Positions 2,921-18,760 of a stretch of 64,000 nt of DNA are shown here, piece by piece. A model generated the notes under the pieces. It saw only the letters and a program-made list of their open reading frames with translations, made no database searches and was not told the origin of the DNA. Each line of letters opens with the position of its first letter. Position 1 is the first letter of the stretch. The DNA comes from Spirochaetia bacterium. Lineage in GTDB: Bacteria > Spirochaetota > Spirochaetia > SZUA-6 > Bin103. A program made the position numbers and the translations under genes. The stretch spans positions 1,248,001-1,312,000 of the forward strand of contig CBDBOV010000006.1 in assembly GCA_965208575.1 (NCBI GenBank), written 5' to 3'.

Positions 2921-4994
2921 CGTGAGTTTCCTAGTTATTTCGGGTGGCTGGTAGTTTGAGTGGATAAGTCATTTTAGGATAGCAAGTTACTCGCTATCCT
3001 GTCGGACGGGGCTTGTATACACTGACCGTGGTGCTGTCAGGGATGGGCGTGTCGGTATACGTCAAGTAGGCGGCACAGTTTGTCTTGCAGGGACGACCGT
3101 TCAGAGAGCACGTATTGAGCCCGGTAGCGCCCTCTGGTGGCCGGCTCAGGCGCGGCGTAGAGGTTGACCACTTCGGTCACGCCGCTGAGTTCCGTCAGTA
3201 GTTGCTCGATGGTAAGGAGTTGTCCGCCGTCGGCCGCCTTGCGTTGCAGCAGCGAACTCAGCAGCAGTGCCAACACACAATAGAACACGTGTACGCGCAG
3301 CTTCTGATCGGTCCAGTGGAAGGTCGGCGAGAAGCTCACCCAGTGGGGATTCTTCATCTGCTTGAACGCCCGCTCCACGTGATGTTGAGCGCGGCTGGCC
3401 AAGATGATCTCCTGGTCGCTCCACGACTCGTTGTCGGTGCACAGGATGCGTTTGCCCAAGCGCCGGCGTTGCAAGCGCTGGTACGCTGCCCAATCGGTGC
3501 GAAATCGAAAACTGAGCACGCCGTCGGATTCGCTGATCTGAACCTTGAGAATCTGCTTTACGTACTGACCCGAGGTGATCGTGTCGAAATGCTTCTGCAA
3601 GGATGCTCTGCTGTAGCCTTTGCCCTTTGCTCCCGGTAGCTGGCTGCGCGCCAGCTTGCTGCGCAAGGCGCGCAACGCAGCGCGCTTCTTGCGCAACGCG
3701 TGGTTGATCCCAGCCAGCTGCCCGTCCAGCAACCGGCGACTGTTGGTGACCACCACGGTGCGGCGCTCACCCCAGATCACCTTGTCGCTGCGGTAAGCGG
3801 TCACCCCGGCCAGCCGTGGGTCAGTGAAGGAGTGAAACCTGCCGGCGGGAACCGCCAGCAGATCCTCGTGCTGAGTCACGGTCAAGGAGGTGACGAAATG
3901 GTATGGGCCGGCTTGCAGCGCCTCGATATTCGCTCTCGAGGTGTTGCCGCCATCGAACACCAGCGTGACATCTTCGCAGTCCTGGGCCAACTGCTTGCAG
4001 CGGCTGATCAGCGTCTCGATCAAGCTCGAGAACATCGCGGCGTCATTCTGATTTCCCGGATACGGGTGTGAGAGCAGCGGAATGTGGTAGTCGCAGCTTA
4101 CCAGGAGTGCCAAGCCCAGGATCCGCAGATCGGCGCGTTTGCTTTTCGCGTGGCCACGTTGTGCCAGTGCACTGACGGTGCGACTGTCGATGAACGTATC
4201 GAAGTTGGTCGCATCGAAGATGAGCGGTCGCAGATCGATCCGGTAGTGGTCGATCACCCGCTGCGCCAGTTGTTGCTCAATCGCGCCGATGGCAGCGCTG
4301 TCGAGCATGTTCATGTGATCCCAGAATCGCTGACTGGCGAGCGAGCGCTGTGCAGCGGGGAGCAGCCGATTCAACACCGTGCGTCGATACCACTGGTACA
4401 GAGAAGCCTTGCTGGAGGCGGCCACACAACGGTTCAGCGCCGCCACCAGCAGATACTGTCCGCAGGACAGTCCTTGGTCTCGCTTGGGGACCTGGGTATC
4501 GATAAGGCCCACCACATCCAACTCTTGGGCGATCTGCCAGAGCGCGGCCAACGCACCGAACTGAATGACCTTCGCCTTTGCCGGTCGGGTGGGAGCCTCA
4601 CGGAGGCGCTGGAGCAACTTCTCTGCGCTGCCGAGATGTTCGAGGACGATGGGACGTGGTTTGCCGTTGACGCGTCTGGACTCGACGATCTGCCAGTAGG
4701 TGTGCCCGCGGGAGACCTTTTTCTGGAGGGTGGCCACTGCAATCAGTGTATACACTTAGTACGGAGACAGTCAAGGAGAACCGGCATGAGTGGGTCGGAA
4801 GGATCGAAGAGGGGATACTTCGAGTAGTATTGAGGAAGCTGTCCGGCACGGCGCTCGATATATTCAGTGTATACACTGATCCTCTCAAGAGGAGAGTCCA
4901 CTTCCGTGAACCTATCTTGTTTCATGGTAACAACTTATCTGGATGAACCAGAGAATCCCGCGGTCAAATCAACGGGATAAGTAGGAAGGTCAGG
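2921..4994 (-). mobile_element. IS1634-family insertion sequence (copy type A)
   Basis: Imperfect TIRs CGTGAGTTTCCTAGTTAT / CCTGACCTTCCTACTTAT. Direct repeat CTAA at 2917-2920 and 4995-4998 (GGCTAA if the boundary is shifted). Confidence 0.85.
3037..4737 (-). CDS. IS1634-family DDE transposase
   Basis: N-terminus KKVSRGHTYWQIVESRRVNGKPR; DATN, RGHAKSKRADL, VFDGG, VERAFKQMK, FHWTDQKLRVH motifs. Probable GTG start at 4737 (ORF track 4755). Confidence 0.9.
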   Translation of the reverse strand: MATLQKKVSRGHTYWQIVESRRVNGKPRPIVLEHLGSAEKLLQRLREAPTRPAKAKVIQFGALAALWQIAQELDVVGLIDTQVPKRDQGLSCGQYLLVAALNRCVAASSKASLYQWYRRTVLNRLLPAAQRSLASQRFWDHMNMLDSAAIGAIEQQLAQRVIDHYRIDLRPLIFDATNFDTFIDSRTVSALAQRGHAKSKRADLRILGLALLVSCDYHIPLLSHPYPGNQNDAAMFSSLIETLISRCKQLAQDCEDVTLVFDGGNTSRANIEALQAGPYHFVTSLTVTQHEDLLAVPAGRFHSFTDPRLAGVTAYRSDKVIWGERRTVVVTNSRRLLDGQLAGINHALRKKRAALRALRSKLARSQLPGAKGKGYSRASLQKHFDTITSGQYVKQILKVQISESDGVLSFRFRTDWAAYQRLQRRRLGKRILCTDNESWSDQEIILASRAQHHVERAFKQMKNPHWVSFSPTFHWTDQKLRVHVFYCVLALLLSSLLQRKAADGGQLLTIEQLLTELSGVTEVVNLYAAPEPATRGRYRAQYVLSERSSLQDKLCRLLDVYRHAHP

Positions 4995-5884
4995 CTAAGG
5001 GTGATTCGGACACCGAGCGCGGCAGCGTGTCGCCGACGGCGGCGCTACCGATCAGCGGCGCGCTCAGCGGTTCGCCGGCGAAGCGCCAGGCCGAGGCCGA
5101 ACTCAGTTTGGCGTCGCGTGCGGTGGCTCAGGACGGCGACGGTCGGGCGGTGTCGGCGGCGAGACAGCGTGCGGAGGACGCGCGCGGCGGCGCGGAGTCG
5201 GCGGCGGGCCGGGACTCTGTCCGCCGTTCCGATTCGGCGCCGAAGCGAGTCACGCAGGACGAGGGCGGGCACACCGAGGAAGCGGAGCGCGTTTGTGCCG
5301 ATGCGGCTTCGGCGCCGGGGCGCGGTCGCGAGAGGGATCACGCATGCGGGCAACCGACGGCGATGCGTGGCAGCGGCGTTCGGGCTGCTTCGCCGGCGAA
5401 GCGGCGGGGGCGAGCAGACGGCGGTGGCCGGGACACCTTGGTGCCCGGCAACTGGCCGCCTTCGCCCGGCTACGCGGGGGTGGGAGGTGTCCCGGACCGC
5501 GCAACGTGCGCCGCCGGCCCGCGGTTCGACGCCGATCGGCGCGGCGCGGGCACCGGGGCGGGGCGGCCGCTGGTGTCCGGCTTCGGCGGCGAAGCGGCTT
5601 GCGGCCGTCGCCGGGCATGGCGCGATGGGGCCGGGGGAGCGTTCGCCGGCACTGGAGCGGCACCTGGCCGCGCTGCGCGGCGTCGGCGCGGTGCCGGGCT
5701 CGCGGTCGCGGTACATTCCGGCGGTTGTGCGGCGCGAGGTGTGGCGCCGAGACCAGGGTTGTTGCAGCTATGTCGACCCGCACAGCGGGCGGCGCTGCGG
5801 CTCCCGCTATCGGCTGGAGATCGACCACATCGTGCCGTTCGCGCTCGGCGGCCCTGCCGAGTCATCGAACTTGTGAGAAGGAGT

Positions 5885-5970
5885 CTATCCGAGCTGTGCC
5901 CGAGAGCAGCGTGCGCTAGCCATAGCCGGCGTCGCCGGGCACAGTTCGGATAGGGTTGATTGAACTAAAC
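5885..5970. other. Terminal hairpin plus dif-like 11-6-11 site
   Basis: CTATCCGAGCTGTGCCCG (5885-5902) pairs with CGGGCACAGTTCGGATAG (5936-5953), 17/18. Site AGTTCGGATAG-GGTTGA-TTGAACTAAAC at 5943-5970. Confidence 0.7.
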
Positions 5971-7946
5971 CGAAGTTCCAGAGCGGGAATCTTGTTAATT
6001 CGTTATTGATCTGAAAATTGCGCTCAACAGCCGATGTCCGTTACTGGCTACACTTGGGCGCTGACCTCCAGGAGATCGAAACAGCGCTGCTGCAGCGCGG
6101 TCGGTTCGCTGTGCATGGTGAACGTGGCGCCGCTATCCACTATCCGCACGCGGTTGGCCGTCAGCGTCCCCAACTCGCTCATCAGGCTGCGAAAGCTGTG
6201 CACCGGCAGACCGTCGTCGGTACGCTTGCTCGCCGCCTTCCGGTGTGCGGCCGGTGAGCGTTCCGCCGGTTGCACCACCGACTCGCGCAGCGCCTCGCCG
6301 GCGGCGCGGTCGTGGTCGTCGAACAGCACCGGCGCCAGCTTGCTGCGCATGTGCCACTCCACGTAGTAGGCCAGCATGCACAGGAACACGTGCGCCCGCA
6401 CCCGGTCAGCACTGCGGTGATAGATCGGTCGCACCTTCAGATCCACCGTTTTCATGCTGCGGAAGGCGCGCTCCACCTTGGCCAGATCCTTGTACGCCGT
6501 CACCGTCTGCTCGGCGTCGAACAGCTCCGGCTCCACGTTGGAGCGCACGATGTAGAGCCCGTCCAGTTCTTCCTCGGCCGCGATCTTGTCCAGGTCACGC
6601 ACGAACGAGAACGAGTCGTCGGTGATGGTGGTGGTGAAATGCTTGCCCACCTTGTAGTGGTTGATCACCTTGCCCACCCGCAGGCCGATCGCGGCGGCGC
6701 CGCGCAGCGGCTTTTTGGCGCGCTGCGTGGCCGTCACGATCGGCGTCAGTTCCTCCTCCGTGGAGGCCAGCAACTTCTGCCTCTTGCGCTGCCGTTGCTC
6801 GGCCAGGATCGGGTTGCGGCACACGATCAGCCGCTCGCCGGGGAACTCGGGTGAGCTGATCTCCGCCAGGTCACGCTCGTCGAACATGGTCTGCGCCACT
6901 TCGCCGGCCTCGATCAGCTTGCGGATGGTGGGCGCCCGCAGGGTCGTGATCCAGCGCAGGCCGTCGATCCCCTGCAGGTCCTCGCGGATGCGCGCGCCGG
7001 TGAGCATGCCGCGGTCGCCGACCAGCACGACGCGCTGCAAGCCGAAACGGTTGCGAATCTTGTCGACCTGAGCGGCGACCGTCTTGGGGTCACTGGTGGA
7101 GCCCTCGAATACCTCGACGGCGATGGGACAGCCGTCTGCGGTACACAGCAGGCCGAACACGATCTGCAAGGTGCCGCGTTTGCCGTCGCGGCTGTGACCA
7201 CGGCGCGCCAACGGGCAGGTGTGGCCATGGAAGTAACTGGAAGTCAGGTCGTACAACATGAGCGTGTTGTCATGCAGATGGCGCTTGGCCAAGCGCTGCT
7301 CGATGCCGTGCTGGCGAGCGAGCAGCCAATCCATGGCGGCATACAGCTCATTCTCGTCGACGGCTCCCAACTGCAGCAGGTGGCCGAGGGAGGAGACGGC
7401 GCTTTCGGGGTTCAGGCCGCGAGCGGTGGCGAGTTTGGAGCGAGCGTCGACGACGCGAGCGACGATCATGGCGACGACCAGGTCGCGTTCACGGGAGGCG
7501 GGACGAGCGACGAGGGAATGGAGGGAGAGCTTGCGGAGGGAACCGAGGACGGCGGCGACGTGGCCGTGGGGATAGCTGCGCAAGATGGAGAGCAGTTCGT
7601 TGGGAGAGCGCAGAGCGATACCGCCGTTGAGGAGGACGCGCAAACCCTCGACGAGGTGATCGGGCCACTTGGAGAGGTTGGCGATGGTGCGTTTTTTGAC
7701 CTTGCCGTGCTGGCGGAAGGACTCGCGGAGGAGGACGGCTGGGGGAGAGTTGCGGTTGGGGACGGTGTCGATGTACATGGGCACCCTACGGAGGGAATGG
7801 TAGATCATTTAATAATTACATGTCAACCAGATGAGAGAAAATTAACGCTGAACCACAGGACTATTTACATGGACACGATTTACACCCATGAACACGCTAA
7901 TTCCTGTAATAGGAAACAGTTACAAGAACGGCCTCTCAAACCTCGG
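5970..7946 (-). mobile_element. IS1634-family insertion sequence (copy type B)
   Basis: TIRs CCGAAGTT / CCGAGGTT. 6-bp target duplication ACTAAA at 5964-5969 and 7947-7952. The empty site is preserved in the second copy at 16611-16630. Confidence 0.9.
6048..7778 (-). CDS. IS1634-family DDE transposase
   Basis: MYIDTVPNRNSPPAVLLRESFR..KVKKRTIANLS; YDLTSSYF, RGHSRDGK, VGDRGM, VERAFRSMK, RPIYH motifs. Confidence 0.92.
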   Translation of the reverse strand: MYIDTVPNRNSPPAVLLRESFRQHGKVKKRTIANLSKWPDHLVEGLRVLLNGGIALRSPNELLSILRSYPHGHVAAVLGSLRKLSLHSLVARPASRERDLVVAMIVARVVDARSKLATARGLNPESAVSSLGHLLQLGAVDENELYAAMDWLLARQHGIEQRLAKRHLHDNTLMLYDLTSSYFHGHTCPLARRGHSRDGKRGTLQIVFGLLCTADGCPIAVEVFEGSTSDPKTVAAQVDKIRNRFGLQRVVLVGDRGMLTGARIREDLQGIDGLRWITTLRAPTIRKLIEAGEVAQTMFDERDLAEISSPEFPGERLIVCRNPILAEQRQRKRQKLLASTEEELTPIVTATQRAKKPLRGAAAIGLRVGKVINHYKVGKHFTTTITDDSFSFVRDLDKIAAEEELDGLYIVRSNVEPELFDAEQTVTAYKDLAKVERAFRSMKTVDLKVRPIYHRSADRVRAHVFLCMLAYYVEWHMRSKLAPVLFDDHDRAAGEALRESVVQPAERSPAAHRKAASKRTDDGLPVHSFRSLMSELGTLTANRVRIVDSGATFTMHSEPTALQQRCFDLLEVSAQV

Positions 7947-8201
7947 ACTAAACCGCGGGCCTATCTATGGGGCTTGGAATGCCGGTATCGCGTGCCGGCG
8001 GAGTGCTGAGCGTGGTGGGGAACGCCCAGGCTGACGAAGAAAGACCGGGAAGCGGTGATGTTGCCGTGCGATGCGGCGGCGGCGCGCGGTTGGCGGGCAG
8101 ATCTCGGGTTCCCGACGGGCACGGATGCGCTCGGGCAGCGACAAAAGGGCTGCCAGAGAGGCGAGTGCTGGAGTCGAGCCGACGGCGTGGTGGCGATTGC
8201 T

Positions 8202-9395
8202 TCATGCGGTGTCGGGTGGACCACGGCGAAGCGGCCGGTATTCCCAGGTGGTTTGGGAGCGGAATTCCTGGATACGCCGCATGGTTTGCTGACACGCAGG
8301 ACAGCGCTCGCCATCATCGGTGGAAGTTTCGAGAGCAGGTGCAGCAATCATTTCGTTGCCGGTGGTGCGCGCGATCAGGCGGCGGCACAGCGGCAGTTTC
8401 TCCTTGCGGGCACGATTGGCGAGAAATCCGTAGTGACGAATGCGGACGAAGCGGTCGGGCAGGACGTGCTGCAGGAAACGACGCAGAAATTCGACCGCAT
8501 CGAGTTGCATCATGCGGTGCCGGTGGCCACCAGCATAGTCCTGGTAGCGGAAGCGCACCGAGTCCGCGTCAGCCGCCGTGATCCTGCTGTTGGCGATGGC
8601 GACGCGATGGGTGTAGCGGGCGAGATATTTCAGCACCTGCTCGGGGCCGCCGAAGGGTGGCTTGCAATACACCACCCACTGCTTGGCGCGCAGTTGCTCG
8701 CAGAGTGCTCGGAAGCGACCGGGATCAGCCAACTCGGCAAGGGCACCGTGGAACTGGAGGCGGTCGGCAGCGAAGTGTTCCTGCAGCGCCGCCAGCATCT
8801 TGCCGCGAAACAGTTTCGAGAGAACCCGGACCGGGAGGAAGAAGCCGTTGCGGCAGGATATCCAGTCGGCGCCGTCGGGTGACAGCCCGCCGCCGGGGAT
8901 GACGCAGTGGAGATGGGGATGGTGCACGAGCGTCTGGCCCCAGGTGTGCAGCACAGCGATGAAGCCGATGTCGGCGCCCAGATGTTTGGGATCGGCGGCG
9001 ATGGTCTTGAGGGTAGCTGCGGTGGCAGCGAACAAAGCGCCGTAGATTGCGCGTTGGTTCTGCAGTGCCAGCGGCGCCAACTCGGCCGGCAGGGTGAAGA
9101 CGAGGTGGAAATAGGGCACCGGCAGCAGATCCTGGCAGCGATTCTCCAGCCAGGTGGCGCGCTGCTGCGCCTGGCACTTCGGACAGTGGCGATTGCGGCA
9201 GGAGTTGTACGACACGCGTACCTCGCCACAGGCATCGCAGGCATCGACGTGGCCGCCGAGCTTGGCGGTACGGCAGGCTGCGAGGTCGCGCATGACGCGC
9301 TGCTGGGCCTGCGACACCCGCAAGCCGGGCACGCGGCCATCGGCAGCTGCCAGGGTACGGATGACGTCGGCCACCTCGAAGGGCGGCTGGGGCAC
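8202..9395 (-). CDS. IS91-family (Y2 HUH) transposase with N-terminal zinc-binding domain
   Basis: CRTAKLGGH..C..C, SCRNRHCPKC, HTWG...HPHLH (HUH), YLARY, RIRHYG. Confidence 0.93.
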   Translation of the reverse strand: MPQPPFEVADVIRTLAAADGRVPGLRVSQAQQRVMRDLAACRTAKLGGHVDACDACGEVRVSYNSCRNRHCPKCQAQQRATWLENRCQDLLPVPYFHLVFTLPAELAPLALQNQRAIYGALFAATAATLKTIAADPKHLGADIGFIAVLHTWGQTLVHHPHLHCVIPGGGLSPDGADWISCRNGFFLPVRVLSKLFRGKMLAALQEHFAADRLQFHGALAELADPGRFRALCEQLRAKQWVVYCKPPFGGPEQVLKYLARYTHRVAIANSRITAADADSVRFRYQDYAGGHRHRMMQLDAVEFLRRFLQHVLPDRFVRIRHYGFLANRARKEKLPLCRRLIARTTGNEMIAAPALETSTDDGERCPACQQTMRRIQEFRSQTTWEYRPLRRGPPDTA

Positions 9396-9402
9396 GGCTC
9401 GC

Positions 9403-9936
9403 TCAGCGCAGCGGCGGCAACGACTCCAGTGGGCTCTCGACCGCGGTGATGCGCTTGCGGGTGACGTGGGTGTAGATCACGGTACTCCTGATCGAGGCGT
9501 GCCCGAGCAGCGCCTGAACGGTGCGCAGATCGGTGCCGGATTCGAGCAGATGGGTGGCGAAACAGTGGCGCATGGTGTGCGGGGATACAGGCTTGCCGGC
9601 GACGACGTGGCGCACCTTGGCGATGGCCTGCGCCACCGCATCCCTGGTGACGTGGCGGTCGGGATAGGTCCTGCTGGGAAACAGCCAGGAGCGGGGCCGG
9701 TAGCGTTGGTAGTGGCAGCGCAAGTGGTGCAGCAGGGCCGGCGACAAGGTCACCAAACGATCCTTGCGGCCCTTGCCTTGCACGACATGCAGCAGCATCC
9801 GCTTGCTGTCGATGTCTGCGACCCTCAGGGAGACCGCCTCGGAAACGCGCAGCCCGGCCGCATACAGGGTCATGGCGATGACGCGGTTCTGCGGGTTGGT
9901 GATCGCTTCGAGTACGGCGCGCACCTGGTCCTGGCT
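9403..9936 (-). pseudogene. Tyrosine recombinase, C-terminal catalytic half (split by transposon)
   Basis: YAAGLRVSE, GKGRKDR, HTMRH, LLGH, STVIY catalytic residues. Joins KLPLVLS (13508+) to QDQVRAVL. Confidence 0.9.
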
Positions 9937-9990
9937 TGTTGGGTCTCACGTAATTCTGCTGTTTTTTCGCACGGTAATCTGGACACCATA

Positions 9991-10305
9991 TTATTCTGCA
10001 CCGGGTTGCCGGTGGCCGCGGGCGAGATCTCCTGTCGGTGGTGCTGAGGGGTCCTCAGGAGATTGTCTCAGGAAGCCGAGAACGGCAGGATGTTTGAGAG
10101 AGAGTTCCTGTTCGACGAGAGTCAGCTTGACGGGTGAGTTCTGGAACACGGCGCGCAGCATGTCGGTGAAGTTGTGCAGCACCATGGCGCCCCAGATGTC
10201 ATCACGGAAATACACGAAGTAGGTGGCGCGACCGGCGAACGTCCTGGCGTAGGCGAAGTATTCGCGGTCGCTGCCGGCGATTTTTCTGATAGCGACGTTG
10301 ATCAC
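9991..10305 (-). CDS. Hypothetical protein (last gene of the transposon operon)
   Basis: 104-aa ORF with protein-like composition, starting about 10 bp after the ATPase stop and lying inside the TIRs. Confidence 0.6.
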   Translation of the reverse strand: MINVAIRKIAGSDREYFAYARTFAGRATYFVYFRDDIWGAMVLHNFTDMLRAVFQNSPVKLTLVEQELSLKHPAVLGFLRQSPEDPSAPPTGDLARGHRQPGAE

Positions 10306-10314
10306 GGAACCGAC

Positions 10315-11145
10315 CTACAGAATCTCGGTGGCAGCGAGCCGGACATGCTCGGCGGCGACCACCGAGCAATGCTCGCGAGCGGCCGCCATGAGGGCGCCGC
10401 GGGCGAGATGATTGGCGCGCCGCAGGAGCCCGCCGGAGCCCTGATGGATGGCGACGGCGGCTTCGTCGCTGAGCAGGTCGGCGCTGCGCCGCGCTGTGGC
10501 GGACTGGGTGTCCCGCCCGGCGGCGAGCTGCAGATGGTGGTCGAGGTAGCCGCGCATGTCATCAAGGGAGAGAGCATCGAGGTGGCTGCGGCCCACGACC
10601 CGTGAGGCGAGCGGGCGCGAGGTATGGAACAACAGGCGGTCAAGCAGGCTGCTCTGGCCGGCCAGCACCATCGGCATCAAGGTCTGCGAATCGAAGGCGA
10701 ACTGAGTGAGAGTGTGGAGCTGTGCGAACACCTCGAAGCGGAGCAGATGTGCCTCGTCGACGACCAGCAACGGGGTCTGCTTCTTGCGCCTGATGTCGGT
10801 CAGCAGGTCGCGCACGGTGCGGCTGAGGACGGCCAGTGAGGAGCGCGGGGGGGTGCCCATCTCCAGGCAGATCTGGCGCAGCAGGTCGAGCAGCGTGCCG
10901 GTGGTGGCGATGACCGCCAGGAGACGGTATTCGGCGGGGTGCAGGGTGCTCGTGACATGGCGCAGGGAAGTGGATTTTCCCGCTCCCACCTCGCCGGTGA
11001 TGACGGTGATGAGGCCGAGCCCGAGGGCATACTGAAAGCGCTCGGTGAGCGCTTTCAGGCCCGGGATCGGGTACAGACCGTTGATCGGGACGTCCTGGGG
11101 GAACGGATCGCGTTGGAAACCGAAGGCATGTCTGAGGTCGATCAT
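10315..11145 (-). CDS. ExeA/GspA-like AAA+ ATPase (transposition helper)
   Basis: FGFQRDPF N-terminus; Walker A GEVGAGKS; Walker B VVDEAH; LAGQ. ATGA overlap with the integrase. Confidence 0.9.
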   Translation of the reverse strand: MIDLRHAFGFQRDPFPQDVPINGLYPIPGLKALTERFQYALGLGLITVITGEVGAGKSTSLRHVTSTLHPAEYRLLAVIATTGTLLDLLRQICLEMGTPPRSSLAVLSRTVRDLLTDIRRKKQTPLLVVDEAHLLRFEVFAQLHTLTQFAFDSQTLMPMVLAGQSSLLDRLLFHTSRPLASRVVGRSHLDALSLDDMRGYLDHHLQLAAGRDTQSATARRSADLLSDEAAVAIHQGSGGLLRRANHLARGALMAAAREHCSVVAAEHVRLAATEIL

Positions 11146-12458
11146 CGGTCGGACTCCTCGAACAGCTGGCCGCCGCGGGGGCCGGGCTGGGGGTCATCAG
11201 CGGGCGGCTCCGGCGCCGGCTCGAGCTCGGTCTCATGGCCGCTGATGCGGCGCACGCGGCTGTTGACGTGGGGGTTCAACTCACTGAGGAAGCCGTAAGA
11301 GCGATCTTCGAAGAACACCTCGATGCGGGACGGATCAGCCTCATGATAGAGCAGGTTGACGGTGTTCCCGATGAGCCCCACCGGCGCTTCGTAGAGCTTG
11401 CCGTAGAGGGCGACGGCACGATCCTTGTCGACCTTGCGGCGCACCATGGTGCGGAAGTGGTCACGCACATTCTGGGGCGCAGGCCGCAGCAGTTCCAGGT
11501 GGCGCAGATAGCGCTGCAGGGGCTGCTCCCCGGTGCTGGAGTGAAGCCGCTGATGGTAGCTGTGGTCGAGCCACTCGGCAAGCTGGGCGTTGAGCTGCTC
11601 GAGGGTATCGTGATCGCTGACCAGAGGCAGCATCTGGGTGCGTATGGTGCGGAAATAGCGCTCGATTTTACCCTTTCCCTGGGGCGTGTATGGGGTCGCG
11701 AAGAGGAGCGCTATGCCCAGCGATGCACAGGCGTAACTGAGTCGTTGGGAGCGAAAGCTGGGGCCGTTATCGACATACAGTTTGCGTGGCAGACCGCGCG
11801 TTTCGAGCGCCCGCAGCAGGCAGTCCTGGAAACAGTCGATGTTTTCACGCAGATAGAAGCGGGCGCCGGTGATGAGCCGCGAGTGATCATCGATGCAGGC
11901 GAACAGAAACGTCTTGCGCAGCTTGCCGTCGCTTTTCACGCGCGGGCCGTGCATGCAATCCGCTTGCCACAAGTCGTTCGGCAGTTCCGCTTCGAAGCGC
12001 CGCCGGTCCTGCGTCGCGGGCCGCTGCCGGTGCAGACCATGGCGCCGGAACAATCGGTAGATGCTTTGCCGTGAGGCTGCGAAGTCGGGCGGCAGGAGAT
12101 TGCGGCGGCGCGCCACCTGCAGCACCACTGACAACGACGCCTGTGCCAGTTCACGCCGGAGATTGACCAGTGCCAACTCGGTCTCGGGATCGATGCTGCG
12201 CCCCACGCCGGCGTCCGCGCGGTCCTTCGGGAACAGGCTCTCCAGTTTCTTGCCGCTGTGCTCGTAACGCCGCAGCCAGTCGCGGATCGTCGACCGGCTG
12301 ATCGAACTGCGCAGCGAGAATGGGATCTTCCATTCCTGCTCCGCCAGGTCCTTGATGCGCGCCTCGCGCTTGCCCTGGTCGAGCTTCGCATACCCGATCA
12401 GGCCGGCGATCACACCGAACCGGAACAACGCGATCCGCTTTTTCTTCTCTTCCTCCAT
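11142..12458 (-). CDS. DDE-type integrase/transposase with Mu-transposase-like C-terminus
   Basis: GGAGG RBS then MEEEKKKRIALFRFGVI; WQADCMHG, IDDHSR, YVDNG, GKGKIER. Confidence 0.9.
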   Translation of the reverse strand: MEEEKKKRIALFRFGVIAGLIGYAKLDQGKREARIKDLAEQEWKIPFSLRSSISRSTIRDWLRRYEHSGKKLESLFPKDRADAGVGRSIDPETELALVNLRRELAQASLSVVLQVARRRNLLPPDFAASRQSIYRLFRRHGLHRQRPATQDRRRFEAELPNDLWQADCMHGPRVKSDGKLRKTFLFACIDDHSRLITGARFYLRENIDCFQDCLLRALETRGLPRKLYVDNGPSFRSQRLSYACASLGIALLFATPYTPQGKGKIERYFRTIRTQMLPLVSDHDTLEQLNAQLAEWLDHSYHQRLHSSTGEQPLQRYLRHLELLRPAPQNVRDHFRTMVRRKVDKDRAVALYGKLYEAPVGLIGNTVNLLYHEADPSRIEVFFEDRSYGFLSELNPHVNSRVRRISGHETELEPAPEPPADDPQPGPRGGQLFEESDR

Positions 12459-12739
12459 GATCGAGGAACCTCCTGGGGTGTTGGTGGCATCAATTTGCTC
12501 CCCATTGGTTCGCCGATCACCGCAAAGATCCGGTAGGCTTGGGGTCACCCAGGCGCCAGTTCGCGTTATTTTCTCCGCTCCGATCATGATCAGCCGCGCC
12601 ACCAGCGCCCTGCCCGCAGCGTCGCCCGGACAGCCACCCAAGCGCCAAAGGCGCTCGCCAGCACCGCGGCGGCGTCCTCCTGCACTGCTCACCAGCCACT
12701 TGCCCGGTCTGAGCCGGCACCCCGCGACCAGCACCGTGC

Positions 12740-13351
12740 TCATCGTGCCCCGTGACTGGGTGTCGGCTCATTCCCTGGCTCCTTCAGGGCGCTGTCTGCT
12801 GTGCTCCCGACGCCATCAAGGTGTCCCGCAAAGCCCACCACCGGCACCGCCAGCACCAACTCGGGGGCGGCATCCACTCGCCGTATCTGGCGGTAGCTCA
12901 CCGAATGCGTACTGACGATGATCAACCGCACCACCAGCGCCTTCAGCGCACTGGCCGCAACCTGGCCCGGCCGGCTCACCGCGGTCACCCCCTCCAGCAA
13001 CAACTGCCGGCGCAACCCCTGGCGCCAGTACTGCTGCCGCTGTCGGCTCACCCGCGCGATCCAGCGACCACCCTTCAGCTTGCCCAGCAGGGCTACCAGA
13101 ATCACTCGCCACGGCGCCCAGAACCCGCGGTAGTGGCTGTCCGGTCGCAGCGTGTACACGGTCCCGCAGTCCGGACACCGGTAGCGCTTCATCCACAGCG
13201 GCTCGCCGCAGCCATCGAAGCACCGTCCGACATAGCCATGGCCCCACGGCCGCCTCCGACCGCACTCCAGGCAGCGCTCCGGCCGCGGCCACCGATACTC
13301 CTTGCCCTGTTCCTGAAGTCTCTTGAAATCAACCGCCAGATGGAGTACCAA
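12740..13351 (-). CDS. Zinc-ribbon accessory protein (DUF6431-like)
   Basis: WPRPERCLECG...HGYVGR...KRYRCPDCG (two CxxC pairs); first gene of the transposon. Confidence 0.7.
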   Translation of the reverse strand: MVLHLAVDFKRLQEQGKEYRWPRPERCLECGRRRPWGHGYVGRCFDGCGEPLWMKRYRCPDCGTVYTLRPDSHYRGFWAPWRVILVALLGKLKGGRWIARVSRQRQQYWRQGLRRQLLLEGVTAVSRPGQVAASALKALVVRLIIVSTHSVSYRQIRRVDAAPELVLAVPVVGFAGHLDGVGSTADSALKEPGNEPTPSHGAR

Positions 13352-13367
13352 TCGGCTGTCCTTAGTT

Positions 13368-13410
13368 CAGGGTAGCTGTCCGGTTCTCATCACCTGGGGC
13401 AGCTACCCTG
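13368..13410. promoter_or_regulatory. Stem-loop near the transposon end
   Basis: CAGGGTAGCTGTCC ... GGGCAGCTACCCTG inverted repeat. Confidence 0.5.
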
Positions 13411-13507
13411 TTTTTCTGGTCAGTTTACCTCGACTCTCCCGTCCTCCACTCCAGTCGATCGTGAGACGTCCGCCCCCATTCCGCTCAGATCAATCTGAGA
13501 GCCGACA

Positions 13508-13820
13508 CGCTCAACACCAGCGGCAGCTTCTTGGGCTGCTTGGCGAACGGGATGGACTCGATGTGCCAGTCCTTGCCGAGGGTCTTGAGGTACAGGAAGC
13601 GGAGCGCGCAGACCGCCTGATTGAAGCTGCCCCAGCCCAGATTTCGCTCCTGCACCAAGTGCAGTTGATAGACCCGTATGTCGTCGAGCCCGAGAAGTTC
13701 CGGAGAGCGGTTGAAGTAGCGAGCAAACAACGCGACCTGGCGGACGTAGTATTCGATGGTGTGCGGCGACAGGTTGCGCACCTGCATGTCTTCGATCATT
13801 CTCTGGCGCAGTGGTGTCAT
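13508..13820 (-). pseudogene. Tyrosine recombinase, N-terminal SAM-like half
   Basis: GAGGAG RBS; MTPLRQRMIEDMQVRNLSPHT..YV...ALRFLY...KLPLVLS, typical of integrases paired with IS91-like transposases. Confidence 0.9.
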
Positions 13821-13989
13821 GATGGACTCCTCCTCGTGTCGAGACACGTGGACCATCAGCCCCCGGGGCGGCGCTTCGCTCCGGGGGCAACCACCTGTCT
13901 CCCGGTTAGTAGCGTTCAGACACCATATGAGCGTTGCGTTTGGAAAGGGGCTCCCGCATCGCGACGGCAGGCGCCCCTACCGCGGAGCG

Positions 13990-14034
13990 GTTTAGTTCAA
14001 CGCATTTTATGTGAAGTGCGGGATTATGTGAAGT
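13990..14034 (-). other. dif-like site with a duplicated XerC-like arm
   Basis: Minus strand reads ACTTCACATAA-TCCCGC-ACTTCACATAA-AATGCG-TTGAACTAAAC. Confidence 0.65.
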
Positions 14035-14356
14035 GATTCAACTTAAATCATGGTATACAGGTAATTTGTATCGACGATCGCTTCGCATTATCCCAAGTCC
14101 AGGAGCATGGCGATGAGAGTGTCGGGTGACGTGGACCCGATAGGTTGGACAGTGGATGGGATATTGTAGAGTGCATCTCGTTCGTTGTCAACCCACCCTC
14201 CTGGTCGAGATGATCAGGCGGCGGTAATGGGGGTGGGGTCCGGGGAGGGGGTGAGCGAGCCTGTGGATATGTGGATACTTCGTCCCCACTGCTCGCGCTC
14301 CCGTTGGTCCTCGGATGCCCTTGCACCCCATGCCAACCGCCTGCCGTTCCTGTTCG

Positions 14357-15193
14357 CTACGCCACCTCCTGCTGTTGTTCCGCCACCCCGTCGCGGTACG
14401 CTTCCGCGGGCGTACGCCCGCCGAGCGCCGAGTGTGGTCGGGTCTCGTTGTAGAATGCCATCCACCCGTCGATCACCCGCTGCGCCTCGAAGCCATCCTC
14501 CAAATCGTGCAGGTATACCGACTCGTACTTCAGCGAGCGCCACAACCGTTCGATGAATACGTTATCCAGACAACGACCGCGCCCGTCCATCGAGCACCGT
14601 ATCCCGGTCGCCTCCAACTGGCCGGTGAACGCGATGCTGGTGAACTGGCTGCCCTGATCGGTGTTGAAGATCTCGGGAATGCCGAAGTCTTCCAGAGCGT
14701 CCGCCAACGCCTCCAGGCAGAAGGAGGTGTCCATCGTGTTGGACAGCCGCCAGGCCAACACCCGCCGGCTCGCCCAGTCCATGATCGCCACCAGGTACAG
14801 AAATCCTCCCTGCACCGGGATGTAGGTCAGGTCCGCGCACCACACCTGGTTCGGGCGCTCAATCGTAAGCCCTCGCAGCAGATACGGATACACCCGATGG
14901 TCCGGGTGCGCGACGCTGGTGCGTGGCTTGCGGTAGATCGCCTCCAGCCCCAACAGCCGCATCAGCCGCCGCACCCGGTGCCGACCGACCCGCTTTCCCT
15001 CGCGTGCCAGATGGCGCATCATCTGCCGGCTGCCGTAGAACGGACATTCCAGATAAAGTTCGTCGATGCGGCGCATCAACGCGAGCGTGTCAGCGCTCTC
15101 GCCCACCGCTCGGTAGTACAGCGTCGACCGGTTCAGCCCGATCAGGCGGCACTGCCGGCTGATGCTCAGACCCTCGTGCTCGCGGTCGATCAT
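14357..15193 (-). CDS. IS3 transposase OrfB (integrase core)
   Basis: FYGSR, PNQVWCADLTY, DWASR, FNTDQGSQFTS, DNVFIERLWRSLKYE. Confidence 0.93.
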   Translation of the reverse strand: MIDREHEGLSISRQCRLIGLNRSTLYYRAVGESADTLALMRRIDELYLECPFYGSRQMMRHLAREGKRVGRHRVRRLMRLLGLEAIYRKPRTSVAHPDHRVYPYLLRGLTIERPNQVWCADLTYIPVQGGFLYLVAIMDWASRRVLAWRLSNTMDTSFCLEALADALEDFGIPEIFNTDQGSQFTSIAFTGQLEATGIRCSMDGRGRCLDNVFIERLWRSLKYESVYLHDLEDGFEAQRVIDGWMAFYNETRPHSALGGRTPAEAYRDGVAEQQQEVA

Positions 15194-15213
15194 CTCTCGT
15201 CGCTCGGCCCGGC

Positions 15214-15498
15214 TCAGCGCCCGAGCCCGCGTGCTAAAAAATCGCGCTCCACGGTCAACTCCCCGATCTTGGCATGCAGGTCGTGAATGGTCTCATCGTG
15301 CTCCTTCTGCCGCCGGCTCCGGCCGTCGGCGAACAGGTCCCGCAGACCGGTCTGAGCCTGCCGCTTCCAACTGCTGATCTGGTTCGGATGTATTTCGTGC
15401 TTGGCCGCGATCGCCTGGATCGTACGGTCTCCCCGCAGCGCCTCAATCACTACCTTCGCCTTGAACTCCGCTGTGAACCGACGCCTCTTCGTCGCCAT
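15214..15498 (-). CDS. IS3 transposase OrfA (HTH)
   Basis: RRRFTAEFKAKV...WKRQ...KIGELTVERDFL. Confidence 0.92.
   Translation of the reverse strand: MATKRRRFTAEFKAKVVIEALRGDRTIQAIAAKHEIHPNQISSWKRQAQTGLRDLFADGRSRRQKEHDETIHDLHAKIGELTVERDFLARGLGR
15235..15241 (-). other. Programmed -1 frameshift heptamer T TTT TTA (OrfA-OrfB fusion)
   Basis: The -1 frame after the heptamer is open into OrfB (FSTRARALSRAERREMID). Confidence 0.75.
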
Positions 15499-15565
15499 CT
15501 TGCTGGCCCTCCTCGTGGCCTTGGATACACTCTACCATACCGTCCGTTTTTCCGGGACCAGCTCA

Positions 15566-16711
15566 ATCGCCGCCGATCCCAAACATCTGGGCGCCGACAT
15601 CGGCTTCATCGCTGTGCTGCACACCTGGGGCCAGACGCTCGTGCACCATCCCCATCTCCACTGCGTCATCCCCGGCGGCGGGCTGTCACCCGACGGCGCC
15701 GACTGGATATCCTGCCGCAACGGCTTCTTCCTCCCGGTCCGGGTTCTCTCGAAACTGTTTCGCGGCAAGATGCTGGCGGCGCTGCAGGAACACTTCGCTG
15801 CCGACCGCCTCCAGTTCCACGGTGCCCTTGCCGAGTTGGCTGATCCCGGTCGCTTCCGAGCACTCTGCGAGCAACTGCGCGCCAAGCAGTGGGTGGTGTA
15901 TTGCAAGCCACCCTTCGGCGGCCCCGAGCAGGTGCTGAAATATCTCGCCCGCTACACCCATCGCGTCGCCATCGCCAACAGCAGGATCACGGCGGCTGAC
16001 GCGGACTCGGTGCGCTTCCGCTACCAGGACTATGCTGGTGGCCACCGGCACCGCATGATGCAACTCGATGCGGTCGAATTTCTGCGTCGTTTCCTGCAGC
16101 ACGTCCTGCCCGACCGCTTCGTCCGCATTCGTCACTACGGATTTCTCGCCAATCGTGCCCGCAAGGAGAAACTGCCGCTGTGCCGCCGCCTGATCGCGCG
16201 CACCACCGGCAACGAAATGATTGCTGCACCTGCTCTCGAAACTTCCACCGATGATGGCGAGCGCTGTCCTGCGTGTCAGCAAACCATGCGGCGTATCCAG
16301 GAATTCCGCTCCCAAACCACCTGGGAATACCGGCCGCTTCGCCGTGGTCCACCCGACACCGCATGAAGCAATCGCCACCACGCCGTCGGCTCGACTCCAG
16401 CACTCGCCTCTCTGGCAGCCCTTTTGTCGCTGCCCGAGCGCATCCGTGCCCGTCGGGAACCCGAGATCTGCCCGCCAACCGCGCGCCGCCGCCGCATCGC
16501 ACGGCAACATCACCGCTTCCCGGTCTTTCTTCGTCAGCCTGGGCGTTCCCCACCACGCTCAGCACTCCGCCGGCACGCGATACCGGCATTCCAAGCCCCA
16601 TAGATAGGCCCGCGGTTTAGTTCAATCAACCCTATCCGAACTGTGCCCGGCGACGCCGGCTATGGCTAGCGCACGCTGCTCTCGGGCACAGCTCGGATAG
16701 ACTCCTTCTCA
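15566..16711 (+). mobile_element. 5'-truncated inverted copy of the IS91-like element (transposase remnant 15566-16366 + intact terminal region)
   Basis: The translation from IAADPKHLG onward is identical to 8202-9003. It begins exactly at the IS3 TIR. Confidence 0.9.
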
Positions 16712-17212
16712 TTATGCGAAGCTTCACATAACGCGTTCGTTGCGGAGCTCACCACAGGTTGCGCCACGCTCAGCGCCATGCTTACGCCGAGAGTGTGCCG
16801 TCGACGATCCACGATCGCGTGCACGACCGGGTGGGCGCCGTCGAACGTGATCATGTCAGGGCGCGCCTCTGAAGCCCGGCGTGCTCCGGTGTTCGCGGTC
16901 GATCCCGGGAACGCGGGCGGACCGTCGGATTGCATGCGGTTATCAAGCGAGCCGGGGCGTGATCGCGCCATCATGGAACCTGCGCTCCCGACTACCGGCG
17001 CCGGCGGGTCGTTCACCGCTCCTACCGCTACCGTCGCCGCGGTCGAAGCCGCGCACGATCGCGCCGCCAATCCAGTTCGCCAGTCTCCGGTCGTTCACTT
17101 CCGCGCCATTGAGCGGGTAGACCTCGCTGCAAAGTTGTCCATGCCGCTCTCCCCGCTCTCCCCGCTCGTGTACCGCGTGTGCCCCGCGCCGCCCACGCCG
17201 TCGCTTGCGTGG

Positions 17213-18013
17213 TCAGCGGGCGAGGATTGCTTCGAGGTTGGGGCGGTCGATCAGGGCGGCGTCGGCGGGGCGCTCCAGGAAGGGCTGCACGTCGCGGGCC
17301 AGTTCGCGGGTGTCCAGGCCGGCCAGGCGCGCGGACAGCAGGTCGCGCCAATCGGCCGCCCGGTACGTGCCTGCGCCTTGCGTCTGGTCGAGTGCGTTCT
17401 GCAGGAGTTGCAGGTTCGGCTCCAGCGGCGGGCGGCGTGAGCGGTACCAGATCAGGTCGTACCAGTCGCGGCCCTTGGGGTAGCCGCGGGTCAGCAGCGC
17501 GTGCAGCTTGCCGGCGAACAGCGATGGCAGGTCGTAGTGGCTGACGACGAAGGTGAAGTGGCGGGTCACGAGCGTGCGCTGCATCGCGGCGCCTGCCGGC
17601 GGACGGATGTCGATCTCCAGCTTCACGGAGAGGTTCTGGCGCGCGTGGCCGGACAGGCCGGCCTCCGCTAGCAGGTGCGCGGTTCGCACCCAGGCCACCT
17701 GCACCGGCTCGCGGTCGATCCAGCGAATGGTGCTGTCGAAGCCGGCGAGGTGGAGGTCGCGCTTCAGTTTCTCCAGCCAGCGCACGGGTTCGTAGCCGTC
17801 AGCAGAGACGCGGGAGAAGTCGAGGTCTTCCGAGAAGCGCGGCAACTCCTCCAGGAAGCGCAGCGCCGTGCCGCCGACGAACGCCACCGCCCGCCCCGCC
17901 TCGCTCTCGTGCAGCGACCGCATGATGAACGCCTGCAGGTACTCGCGCAGCGCGTTGAGCCGGCGCGGCGGATCGTCGAATCGTAGCGCCTGGGCGAGCG
18001 CCTGATCCTTCAC
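17213..18013 (-). CDS. AbiEii-family nucleotidyltransferase toxin
   Basis: LREYLQ, FVGGTALR, RFSEDLDFS, GKLHAL, KGRDWYD. GTGA overlap with the upstream gene. Confidence 0.9.
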   Translation of the reverse strand: MKDQALAQALRFDDPPRRLNALREYLQAFIMRSLHESEAGRAVAFVGGTALRFLEELPRFSEDLDFSRVSADGYEPVRWLEKLKRDLHLAGFDSTIRWIDREPVQVAWVRTAHLLAEAGLSGHARQNLSVKLEIDIRPPAGAAMQRTLVTRHFTFVVSHYDLPSLFAGKLHALLTRGYPKGRDWYDLIWYRSRRPPLEPNLQLLQNALDQTQGAGTYRAADWRDLLSARLAGLDTRELARDVQPFLERPADAALIDRPNLEAILAR

Positions 18014-18651
18014 AGTTCGACTCCCTCGGCTTCCTGCTCGGCGCTGCACGCCAGCCACACGTCCACGGCGCGCCCGATGCGCGGCTTTCCGATGCGATGC
18101 GCAAAAGCGCGCAGGCGGTCGCGGTCGACGACGTCGGTCTGCTGGAACCGCATCTCGGTCATCCGGCGCCGGTCCCACTCGCCCGGGTGCAGGTGGAACA
18201 GGTCGAGCAGCGCCTTCTCGGCGGTCGCCACCAGCGCGTCGCTGCCGGCGACCGACACGCCGTGGTAGCCGAAGAACATGCTCCTCTTGATGGCCGTGTA
18301 GCGGAACATGCCGAACGTATTTTCGAAATGAGCGGGACCGCGGGTGGTCACGCTGGTGTAGACCGGCACCGCCTCGGGGATCAGGCCGTAGAAACCGAGC
18401 GCCCAGGGGCCGCTGAGATAGGACGGAGAGCAGAGGGCGTTGGCCAGCGCCGCCGGCGGCACCGGCACGCGGCGGTAGCGGTCGGCCAGGGCATACATGC
18501 CGCGGCGCAGCGGGATCAGCTTGCCCGCCCGGCTCCAGCGGTAGAGCTGGTTCACCACGTCGCGCCGCGGTTCGCCGCACAGTTGCACGACCGTCGCCAA
18601 GTCGAACCAGGGCGTCGCACCCAGCAGGTCTGCCACTTCATCAAGGCGCAT
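18010..18651 (-). CDS. AbiEi-family antitoxin (type IV TA)
   Basis: LRRGMY, PSYLS..WALGFYGLIPE, TSVT, EKALLDL. Confidence 0.88.
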   Translation of the reverse strand: MRLDEVADLLGATPWFDLATVVQLCGEPRRDVVNQLYRWSRAGKLIPLRRGMYALADRYRRVPVPPAALANALCSPSYLSGPWALGFYGLIPEAVPVYTSVTTRGPAHFENTFGMFRYTAIKRSMFFGYHGVSVAGSDALVATAEKALLDLFHLHPGEWDRRRMTEMRFQQTDVVDRDRLRAFAHRIGKPRIGRAVDVWLACSAEQEAEGVEL

Positions 18652-18661
18652 ATTACAAACC

Positions 18662-18699
18662 GTTGATGATAACCTACAGAAACGCCGGTTATTGTCAAC
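18662..18699 (-). promoter_or_regulatory. abiE promoter with inverted-repeat operator
   Basis: GTTGATGATAACC / GGTTATTGTCAAC (11/13 IR) overlapping a minus-strand TTGACA. AbiEi autoregulation through promoter IRs is established for this family. Confidence 0.6.
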
Positions 18700-18760
18700 A
18701 GTTCCCGCCTGAGAGACCCAGGGTTCCACCAAGTTTCGACGGGCAGTGCTGCGGACCGTA

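Follow-up and report, generated by a model that had tools for sequence, protein, structure and literature searches.

Entries of the IS91 family that carry an upstream 'phage integrase' gene are included in ISfinder. The ends of the family are described in excerpts of PMC13181058 as having subterminal palindromes at oriIS and terIS, with no target duplication and with a tetranucleotide beside oriIS, the two ends being functionally distinct and not inverted repeats; according to the same excerpts, IS91 is inserted only as a bottom-strand single-stranded circle. 'TRs found in IS91 and IS3 transposons' (tyrosine recombinases) were placed in an integron-like subgroup in an excerpt of bioRxiv 10.1101/542381. 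Here, a 64-kb stretch of DNA from a Spirochaetia bacterium (64,000 nt of contig CBDBOV010000006.1, hereafter the window) was analysed and found to contain a dead copy and a partial copy of an element from the IS91 subgroup that has a tyrosine recombinase gene ahead of the gene for an HUH/Y2 transposase, tnpA. This identification is firm, and we are highly confident of the identity and ends of the element and of the assignment of its left outer arm to flanking DNA. Our reading as a whole, in which the recombinase of an IS91 rolling-circle element selects sites of the tyrosine recombinase type for insertion and perhaps also catalyses it, is put forward at even chances.

Compared with IS91, IS801 and IS1294, the element has the same kind of HUH/Y2 transposase, an oriIS-type subterminal hairpin downstream of tnpA and a small ter palindrome; the lack of target duplication (seen in Rhizobium), the CTTG at the ori end of the dead copy (copy 1) and the presence of an upstream accessory gene (compare orf121) are also shared. 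It differs from them in that the upstream gene codes for a full tyrosine recombinase, in its 14-bp inverted repeat, in a TnpA that is ~25-30% identical to theirs, and in that most flanks are the border of an arm-6-arm palindrome and not CTTG or GTTC. With the IS91 entries that have an upstream integrase it shares the two-gene architecture and a recombinase of the IntI-like class without the IntI insertion, and the window element is a decayed addition to that catalogued subgroup. [quoted passage not shown]

Two copies of the element in the window

An earlier note on this DNA had reported, at both ends of the element, stretches with 11-6-11 geometry that share an inner arm in inverted orientation, plus an extra outer arm. 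All of this is in the sequence as reported: 5943-5970(+) reads AGTTCGGATAG-GGTTGA-TTGAACTAAAC, 13990-14017(-) reads ACTTCACATAA-AATGCG-TTGAACTAAAC, and a further ACTTCACATAA lies at 14024-14034(-), 6 nt outward of the first. Three exact matches to the 11-mer TTGAACTAAAC are present in the window, at 5960+, 13990- and 16615-, against 0.01 expected, a number reached in 0 of 100 shuffles, and with up to two mismatches there are 8 matches against 2.86 expected. All exact matches sit at ends of two IS91-family copies that are identical to each other; the parts and surroundings of these copies are as follows.

5001..5873, + strand: HNH endonuclease gene (Pfam HNH, only profile positions 3-33 of 47), its 3' end cut by the insertion
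5874..14000, - strand: copy 1 of the recombinase-carrying IS91-family element, ~2.56 kb without its two nested insertions
5874..5884, - strand: right (oriIS-type) tail of 11 nt; the element strand reads ...ACTCCTTCTCA and then ends
5885..5953, - strand: hairpin of the oriIS type (stem 18 bp, loop 33 nt); arms 5885-5902 and 5936-5953, 94% complementary
5960..5972, + strand: inner arm on the right, one of the two copies of the 14-bp inverted repeat, broken after 13 nt and resumed at ~7947-7955
5973..7946 (approximate), - strand: nested IS1634/IS4-like insertion sequence (IS) with a DDE transposase gene at 6048-7808 (Pfam DDE_Tnp_1, 5.5e-15)
8202..9395, - strand: tnpA, intact, 397 aa, IS91-family HUH/Y2 transposase (Pfam and NCBIfam)
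9403..9936, - strand: tyrosine recombinase gene, C-terminal catalytic part (Phage_integrase, 2.7e-35)
9937..13508, - strand: nested transposon of ~3.57 kb with TGT...ACA-type ends (approximate)
13509..13820, - strand: recombinase gene, N-terminal SAM-like part (Phage_int_SAM_4, 1.3e-21), likely start ATG at 13820
13987..14000, - strand: 14-bp inverted repeat at the left terminus, TTGAACTAAACCGC, with a putative terIS-type end at 14000
14001..14090, - strand: left flank of copy 1, target DNA outside the element
15566..16711, + strand: copy 2, the 3' two-thirds of tnpA and an intact right end, 100% identical to copy 1 over 1056 + 99 nt
16612..16711, + strand: copy 2, right end, with the inner arm at 16612-16625, a spacer at 16626-16631, the hairpin (arms 16632-16649/16683-16700) and the tail at 16701-16711
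16712..16731, + strand: palindrome TTATGCGAAG-CTTCACATAA directly next to copy 2 at its right end, taken to be the target's other half

The tnpA product matched Y2_Tnp (1.5e-68), Zn_Tnp_IS91 (1.1e-30) and NF033538 (449 bits, cut-off 125), and the recombinase fragment at 9403-9936 gave NCBIfam matches to XerD and to integron integrase, all of them under the cut-off. The description given in the note, an IS91-type HUH (Y2) transposase with an upstream tyrosine recombinase, is thus borne out by Pfam and NCBIfam matches. Of the features that define the IS91 family, the element has the HUH/Y2 enzyme with an N-terminal zinc-binding domain and the subterminal palindromes at oriIS (an 18-bp hairpin, 11 nt from the end) and terIS; it departs from the distinct, non-repeat ends of the family by a 14-bp inverted repeat at or near both ends. 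This repeat is a feature of the subgroup and leaves family membership unaffected.

The perfect inverted repeat of copy 1 is 14 bp long (TTGAACTAAACCGC), the right one being split by the IS1634-like insertion, and a small palindrome, CCGC-N3-GCGG, lies inward of the left one. When the oriIS-type hairpin was folded as DNA, it gave -26.5 kcal/mol (z = -3.8), and AGTTCGGATAG is part of its arm at 5936-5953 (the 3' arm, which is the inner arm on the element). The right end of copy 1 at 5874 is a true end, because copies 1 and 2 diverge exactly at 5874/16711, and CTTG at 5870-5873, within the HNH gene, abuts this ori end. As the window has a single left end, the left end was judged from the relatives and lies most likely at 14000 instead of 14034; of the span 5874..14034 proposed before, the start holds and the end is moved inward.

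Copy 1 is dead, because the IS1634-like IS splits its right repeat and the transposon splits its recombinase gene. The IS1634-like IS is flanked by an 8-9-bp target duplication, (A)CTAAACCG, and is missing from copy 2. Two IS4/IS1634-like DDE transposase genes are present within 5 kb (3037-4755 and that of the 5973-7946 element). The boundaries of the nested transposon were set by reading the sequence and by the point at which the recombinase frame breaks. It carries genes for an rve/Mu-C transposase (11142-12743) and an AAA_22 ATPase (10315-11145), and its ORFs at 9991-10305 (104 aa) and 12740-13351 (203 aa) had no Pfam or NCBIfam match. The layout of its genes is TniA/TniB-like, and the rve/Mu-C transposase scored 208 bits with the IS481 model, under the cut-off of 224.

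The left part of copy 2 was removed by an IS3-family element and a deletion. This IS3-family element (rve, HTH_21; ~14250-15565) abuts the cut-down copy, and the DNA to its left (14093-14250) had no match in the searches made; therefore, the deletion went with the IS3-family insertion. The region as a whole is a pile-up of insertion sequences.

Conservation of the two-gene unit and of its ends

In a protein search with TnpA, at least 8000 candidates were scored, all with E <= 0.001, and the best matches (P0001-P0031) came from metagenome contigs and were 75-95% identical, with a maximum of 95%. Genomes were scanned with an alignment of 17 sequences as the query, and the HUH and Y2 (two-Tyr) motif columns of TnpA were invariant in 17 of 17 sequences. 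The scan returned 597 matched stretches, 595 of which were confirmed, and the best 80 of the 595 were retained as relatives. Their TnpA proteins are 49-61% identical to that of the window copy, and their hosts belong to the Acidobacteriota, the Planctomycetota, the Alpha-, Beta- and Gammaproteobacteria, the Clostridia and others. When plasmids were searched, 10 of 3756 records fell in the 60-80% identity band, and identity was at most 56% among the matches listed (70).

A match to the recombinase catalytic domain lies directly upstream of tnpA at 78 of the 80 loci, and matches to both recombinase domains at 76; one of the two exceptions has just 188 nt of upstream sequence. Therefore, the two-gene unit is ancient and widespread. 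With at least 8000 protein matches and 595 confirmed stretches from many phyla, IS91-family elements with a recombinase are very common. Repeat units are 2486-2588 bp long in the relatives, and 2563 bp in the Rhizobium alignment described below. L081, a Sinorhizobium copy that lacks a recombinase gene, was a candidate for a natural recombinase-less control and was set aside, since its right end is unchanged, an unrelated gene stands in place of its upstream part and it looks truncated.

The top-scoring inverted repeat was found at the same two places in 44 of the 57 loci with both flanks, 40-260 nt ahead of the recombinase start codon and 180-300 nt past the tnpA stop, with a length of 13-36 nt (median 19). 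The family consensus of the inner-arm repeat is 14 bp long, TTGAACnAAnCCGC. Allowing up to two mismatches, 47 of 59 eligible loci have it on the left, 52 of 77 have it on the right and 34 of 57 have it on both sides, with 45 matches in 1.48 Mb of shuffled loci as the control; the loci with the consensus on neither side (7/57) mostly carry divergent variants in which pairing is still kept. The inner arm shared by the two ends, as first noticed in the window, is a real inverted repeat that is conserved family-wide. It is absent from two classical members without a recombinase, IS91 (L091, from an E. coli plasmid) and the IS1294-like L092, the best inverted matches of which (17 nt with 2 mismatches and 10 nt; scores 24 and 20, respectively) are in the off-position range.

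At the right end, the order in relatives is repeat, 1-6 nt, hairpin (16-26-bp stem, ~30-38-nt loop) and short tail. A hairpin score of at least 20 was obtained in 53 of 59 loci compared to 1.7% of 295 shuffles, and the stem sequences vary among clades with pairing conserved. The tail is longer than the spacer of the opposite side wherever the end is known (the window, Rhizobium, L035, L044, L061, L064, L032, L069 and L072), being 11 nt against 6 nt in the window.

Some loci showed additional features around the ends. The right flanks of L033 (past ~7530) and L061 contain one or two extra copies of the tail together with the distal hairpin arm; those of L033 follow each other in tandem. These extra copies look like solo remnants or footprints of earlier copies. 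At L050, a 44-nt inverted repeat with 3 mismatches (4835-4878/7587-7630) brackets the element ~90 nt outside its ends, and the element is apparently inside another repeat-bounded unit. In a Roseovarius locus (L028, ~7443-7925), the right 14-bp repeat of one element is joined to the middle of a different tnpA, with the rearrangement breakpoint at the repeat.

The left outer arm as target DNA

Near-identical copies were compared in pairs, taken within one genome or locus (L025/28, the two copies of L029, L032/58, L035/37, L044/45 and L061/62), across two metagenome-assembled genomes (L064/68), or from R. johnstonii (its two copies). Identity within pairs is lost 0-8 nt outside TTGAAC. A terIS cut after GTTC within the repeat, following the classical rule, was rejected, as paired copies share TTGAAC plus these 0-8 nt. 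The stand-alone contigs L022, L069 and L072 (2.5-2.6 kb) start no more than 2 nt from the repeat, and the last two of these also stop at the tail. Very probably, the left outer arms are flanking target DNA outside the repeated unit; therefore, the left 11-6-11 site consists of a target arm, a target spacer and the element end. The arm-6-arm geometry that the earlier note saw at both ends thus holds family-wide, but its two dif-like bounding sites do not belong to the element, the right outer arm being the base of the oriIS-type hairpin and the left one being flank supplied by the target. When the ends of homologues were aligned, the 14-bp repeat and the 6-nt register were conserved, but the left outer arms differed between copies.

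The left flank itself, NEVERTHELESS, is non-random. Among 54 unique flanks (background A 21%), 34 have A at -10, 36 have A at -8 and 45 have A/T at -7, and the spacer next to the element (-6 to -1) was unconserved, A-N-A-(A/T) being at a fixed 6 nt from the element end. The right-hand site of the element has ATA(G/C) in the same register. Both ends share a bipartite geometry, with the left outer half coming from the target.

Pairing of at least 8 of 11 positions between the left arm and the right flank was observed at 9 of 40 loci compared to 5.8% of 1560 cross-locus controls, and pairing of at least 9 of 11 at 3 of 40 loci compared to 0.6% of the controls; the best pairing offsets are located at the end of the element. 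In copy 2 and in most relatives the right flank starts with TTAT, CTAT or TTGG-type sequence (element strand), not with CTTG or GTTC.

Empty and occupied sites in Rhizobium

Rhizobium johnstonii 3841 has one copy on pRL10 and another on pRL11, 99.96% identical over a 2563-bp alignment, with the window-type architecture and a TnpA 54% identical to that of the window. The pRL10 copy is preceded by an 81-nt repeat (S), which ends in GCTCGGTATAA, and then by GTGCCT, and is followed by the palindrome TTATGCCGAATTCGGCATAA; around the pRL11 copy, the order is the palindrome TTATGCCGAATTCGGCATAA, CGGAAC, the element and S inverted. Empty target sites were available for comparison in other strains (L084 and L088), where S, six nucleotides and the palindrome follow each other with nothing in between. 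No target-site duplication was found when the occupied L083 was compared to the empty L084, and the flanks of the window copies do not match each other. In Rhizobium, insertion was thus precise and free of duplication, at the border between the 6-nt spacer and the arm. It took place in either orientation of a two-fold symmetric arm-6-arm site, with the left end of the element always beside the spacer.

The opposite orientation of the two R. johnstonii copies relative to the same flank repeats, and the inverted sites with 6-nt spacers at both ends, could also be read as internal inversion or resolution, in which the recombinase acts on the 14-bp repeats or on tandem right-end sites and the flank pattern reflects ends that settled in safe havens. 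However, the whole R. johnstonii unit is reversed, including hairpin and tail, and the copies are on different plasmids in separate copies of the target. Moreover, no variant with an inverted interior was found among the 80 loci, in which the order is always recombinase gene, tnpA and hairpin. We consider internal inversion or resolution very unlikely.

The repeat S was found in 114 plasmid records and is the terminal repeat of a RIT element, with three overlapping tyrosine recombinase genes (pRL11 376296-379437) and S on both sides. The 81 nt of S are in turn built from arm-like direct repeats, arranged as an array, and a single inverted arm. RIT elements are described in excerpts of PMC3414803 and PMC5737581 as recombinase-in-trio elements. 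They are separate from the present element, with three recombinases and no HUH transposase; the relation is that they provide its target, and the element abuts the RIT repeat on pRL10, on pRL11 and in L008. RIT element regions were located at L082 (1-1493), L090 (pRL11 374.9-379.6 kb) and L008 (1556-4807), and in the last of these, from Cognatazoarcus, the trio of recombinase genes ends ~160 nt from the left end of the element. No RIT genes were found in the 64-kb window.

The presumed target in the window

Outward from its left end, copy 1 is flanked by a spacer (14001-14006), an arm ACTTCACATAA (14007-14017), a second spacer and a second arm ACTTCACATAA (14024-14034), followed ~45 nt beyond these direct arms by an inverted arm-like CTTCGCATTA at 14081-14090. 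With two direct arms at a 17-nt period and one inverted arm, this flank (~84 nt) has the layout of the 81-nt RIT terminal repeat of Rhizobium. When the left flank of copy 1 was joined to the right flank of copy 2, the pRL10 layout was obtained, and the layout of L043 is likewise the same. We infer that one original insertion would have been into the site ACTTCACATAA-AATGCG/TTATGCGAAGC, at the position of the stroke, and that a second, classical-looking one would have been at CTTG in the HNH gene. A single homologous exchange (inversion) between the identical inverted copies would then swap the flanks, splitting the single target, and the remainder of the HNH gene would be predicted within the stretch later lost beside the IS3 element. 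In the window, an empty target of the form CATAA-N6-TTATG had 0 matches with up to one mismatch, and CTTCRCATAA was found only at the flanks of both copies, plus two matches with one mismatch. The left flank (14001-14246) had no match when searched against plasmids. The target arm and the element's own outer arm agree at 7 of 11 positions in the window.

Integrative mobile elements exploiting Xer (IMEX) have no recombinase of their own and integrate at the single chromosomal dif through host Xer. In those of the CTX-phi type, single-stranded DNA made by an HUH enzyme folds its inverted sites into one, and one strand is exchanged into a dif-type 11-6-11 site. An IMEX-like mechanism at dif had been suggested for the present element, in which two inverted dif-like sites of its own would fold and recombine with the chromosomal dif, its own recombinase handling the inner arm and host XerC possibly the outer one. 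The 11-6-11 geometry is indeed present and the repeats can pair in a single-stranded circle. Furthermore, the target arms ACTTCACATAA and GCTTCGCATAA (reverse complement) match the XerC side of the dif sites of Thiobacillus and Methylobacillus at 10 of 11 positions, on the sequences given in excerpts of PMC2731167.

According to those excerpts (PMC2731167), dif consists of a XerC arm, a 6-nt centre and a well-conserved XerD arm, and occurs once per chromosome, at the terminus. In contrast, the arm at the XerD position in the window matches the XerD arm quoted in the earlier note at just 7 of 11 positions, although the XerD arm is generally the better conserved of the two, and the flank site has a total of four arms instead of two, both arms of the core pair being XerC-arm-like. 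The left outer arms lie outside the element, which encodes its own recombinase and is multi-copy (two copies within the 64 kb of the window and pairs elsewhere) against one dif per chromosome, and the similar site of relatives is a RIT terminus on plasmids. A CTX-phi-type IMEX differs from the window element in the same respects, that is, in the own recombinase, the copy number, the lack of a canonical dif and the left junction, where one arm is the element's own. IMEX-like integration at dif is thus extremely improbable here, and the comparison with dif favours, as far as the arms can tell, a target of the Xer/RIT type that is no canonical dif.

Members of the IS1202 family (ISAjo2 relatives) share with the present element a fixed position and orientation at a Xer-type site (dif or pdif), as described in excerpts of PMC10132070. 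They are 1.5 kb long, with imperfect terminal inverted repeats of 24-26 bp, and lie 5 bp from the XerC arm (PMC10132070, same excerpts), whereas the window-type element lies at the spacer/arm border and makes no duplication.

The recombinase

As the recombinase gene is interrupted in the window, the product of an intact relative (L043) was compared to the available models. The best one was the integron integrase model TIGR02249, with 191 bits in two stretches against a cut-off of 265, followed by XerA, XerD and XerC. The best match among solved structures was VchIntIA (2a3v; 4e-35), in an alignment that skips IntI residues 179-245 against 25 residues of the query; therefore, the IntI-specific insertion is missing. 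The protein has neither the score nor the IntI-specific segment of an integron integrase. At every presumed catalytic position (R, K, H-x-x-R, H and Y), 71 of 71 intact relatives carry the majority residue, and the set is also visible in the C-terminal fragment of the window. The recombinase is IntI/Xer-like, with what looks like a catalytically competent set in the relatives.

A proposed role for the recombinase in insertion

In the mechanism that we propose, TnpA would peel the bottom strand from ori to ter and close a single-stranded circle, as in IS91. In the circle, the 14-bp repeats would pair and stack on the hairpin, forming a long stem with an asymmetric bulge (6 against 11 nt) and with the ori-ter joint at the arm/bulge border. 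The circle would then be inserted into arm-6-arm palindromes whose inner arm ends in ...A-N-A-(A/T), such as RIT tips, exactly at the arm/spacer phosphodiester and without duplication. The IntI/Xer-like recombinase would choose the target and would probably perform or position the exchange of one strand, replication completing the process as for integron cassettes, and TnpA alone could still insert at the classical CTTG, as at the ori end of copy 1.

When the ori-ter joint was assembled by script from the two window ends and folded, it formed a 14-bp stem, a bulge and an 18-19-bp hairpin (-45 kcal/mol, z = -4.7). On the mobilised strand, the ori-ter joint is immediately 3' of the arm GTTTAGTTCAA, and in the target, the joined phosphodiester is immediately 3' of the arm GCTTCGCATAA. 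Tyrosine recombinases cut at this position, where the arm gives way to the spacer. The product retains the target spacer on the left, as expected if one strand is exchanged and replication finishes. A role of the recombinase is proposed because both the position of insertion and the type of target are what a tyrosine recombinase cuts, and an active role in insertion because symmetric two-arm targets, a fixed 6-nt register and conserved catalytic residues are found together; we rate such an active role as close to an even chance, if not a shade under it. With respect to the coupling of single-stranded DNA to the element's own recombinase that was suggested at the outset, the junctions do lie at tyrosine recombinase cut positions and on the strand mobilised in IS91, but the mechanism as such is a proposal.

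The alternative is plain IS91 transposition, in which the DNA chemistry is entirely that of TnpA, from the nick at ori and termination at ter to the insertion of the single-stranded circle, with the 14-bp repeats serving as TnpA sites of the subgroup and the recombinase being accessory, acting as a regulator, as a termination helper (like Orf121 of IS91) or as a resolvase of tandem or cointegrate products at the right-end site. Palindromic targets would then be favoured merely through hairpin extrusion in single-stranded DNA, which HUH enzymes like. The ori hairpin and ter palindrome are the known anatomy of IS91 ends, the ori end of copy 1 adjoins CTTG, the classical IS91 target, and excerpts of PMC13181058 report that TnpA alone inserts bottom-strand single-stranded circles and that the upstream ORF modulates termination. 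However, the full catalytic set in 71 of 71 relatives argues for catalysis, beyond mere binding. Likewise, A-N-A-(A/T) at a fixed 6 nt across the cut, together with insertion at the arm/spacer border, are hallmarks of a dimeric recombinase site, and most right flanks start without the classical tetranucleotides. Plain transposition is plausible, although we hold it to be somewhat short of an even chance.

Several points weigh against the active role that we prefer. The ability of IS91 TnpA to insert circles by itself is one of them, and the right end is identical at the palindrome and at the CTTG flanks; therefore, TnpA alone is the simplest agent for joining the ends. The facts on the joint and on the target junction fit TnpA joining its own ends equally well. 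As the recombinase is without the insertion specific to IntI, recognition of a folded strand in the manner of integrons is no safe assumption. A clear palindromic partner (at least 8 of 11 positions) is missing at 31 of 40 insertions, and a general resemblance of target arms to the element's own arms was sought across clades and not seen. Finally, the left boundary in the window and the single ancestral target are deduced and not seen, the left part of copy 2 being lost, and each step of the mechanism is transferred to this subgroup by inference.

Integrons offer a parallel to the proposed active role of the recombinase. As described in excerpts of PMC8946536, attC x attI recombination shares with the present element an IntI-like recombinase, a substrate that is here predicted to be a folded bottom strand, imperfectly palindromic, with an unpaired centre and a variable loop, and insertion at one spacer border with the target spacer retained; the exchange of one strand completed by replication was demonstrated for integron cassettes (PMC8946536). 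The extra direct arms beside the core pair in the window-type target are comparable to DR1 and DR2 of attI1 (PMC8946536, excerpts). In contrast to integrons, there is no integron platform or cassette array here, and it would be the HUH transposase encoded by the element that supplies the single strand. The full two-enzyme pathway, in which an HUH-made circle with an attC-like stem is inserted by its own IntI-like recombinase into core sites of the RIT/Xer type, is in our estimate unlikely. If true, the integron cassette/IntI system would have free-living relatives in these elements, which bring along a single-stranded substrate of their own.

The anatomy can now be tested by means of the recombinase-associated terminal repeat, the 6-nt register, the precise insertion at the spacer/arm border and the natural pairs of empty and occupied sites in R. 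johnstonii, a harmless host that is easy to work with. If the recombinase does insert, this would be a second natural system of folded-single-strand recombination, besides integrons and CTX-type phages, and, of the known relatives of integron integrases, its recombinase would be the closest one to have a substrate supply of its own. If it does not, the element is an ordinary decayed IS, and the geometry of the site still explains the pile-up at RIT ends.

Other features of the window

The window, whose host has a GC content of 65%, contains further repeated genes. Two loci for AbiEii-type nucleotidyltransferase toxins (type IV toxin-antitoxin) are present at 17213-18732 and 35404-36836, and a Uma2-family endonuclease gene at 18761-19324. 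At least five genes for family-5 solute-binding proteins, together with paralogous genes for peptide-type ABC permeases, are distributed over 19.3-31.9, 39.9-44.2 and 49.2-53.1 kb, and these permease and solute-binding paralogues are ~71-75% identical in DNA. Genes for AAA_14/DUF4143 ATPases are duplicated (54170-55342 and 58425-59576), and the region 56.5-61.6 kb has several internal repeats of 89-95% identity, which make up a further repeated unit.

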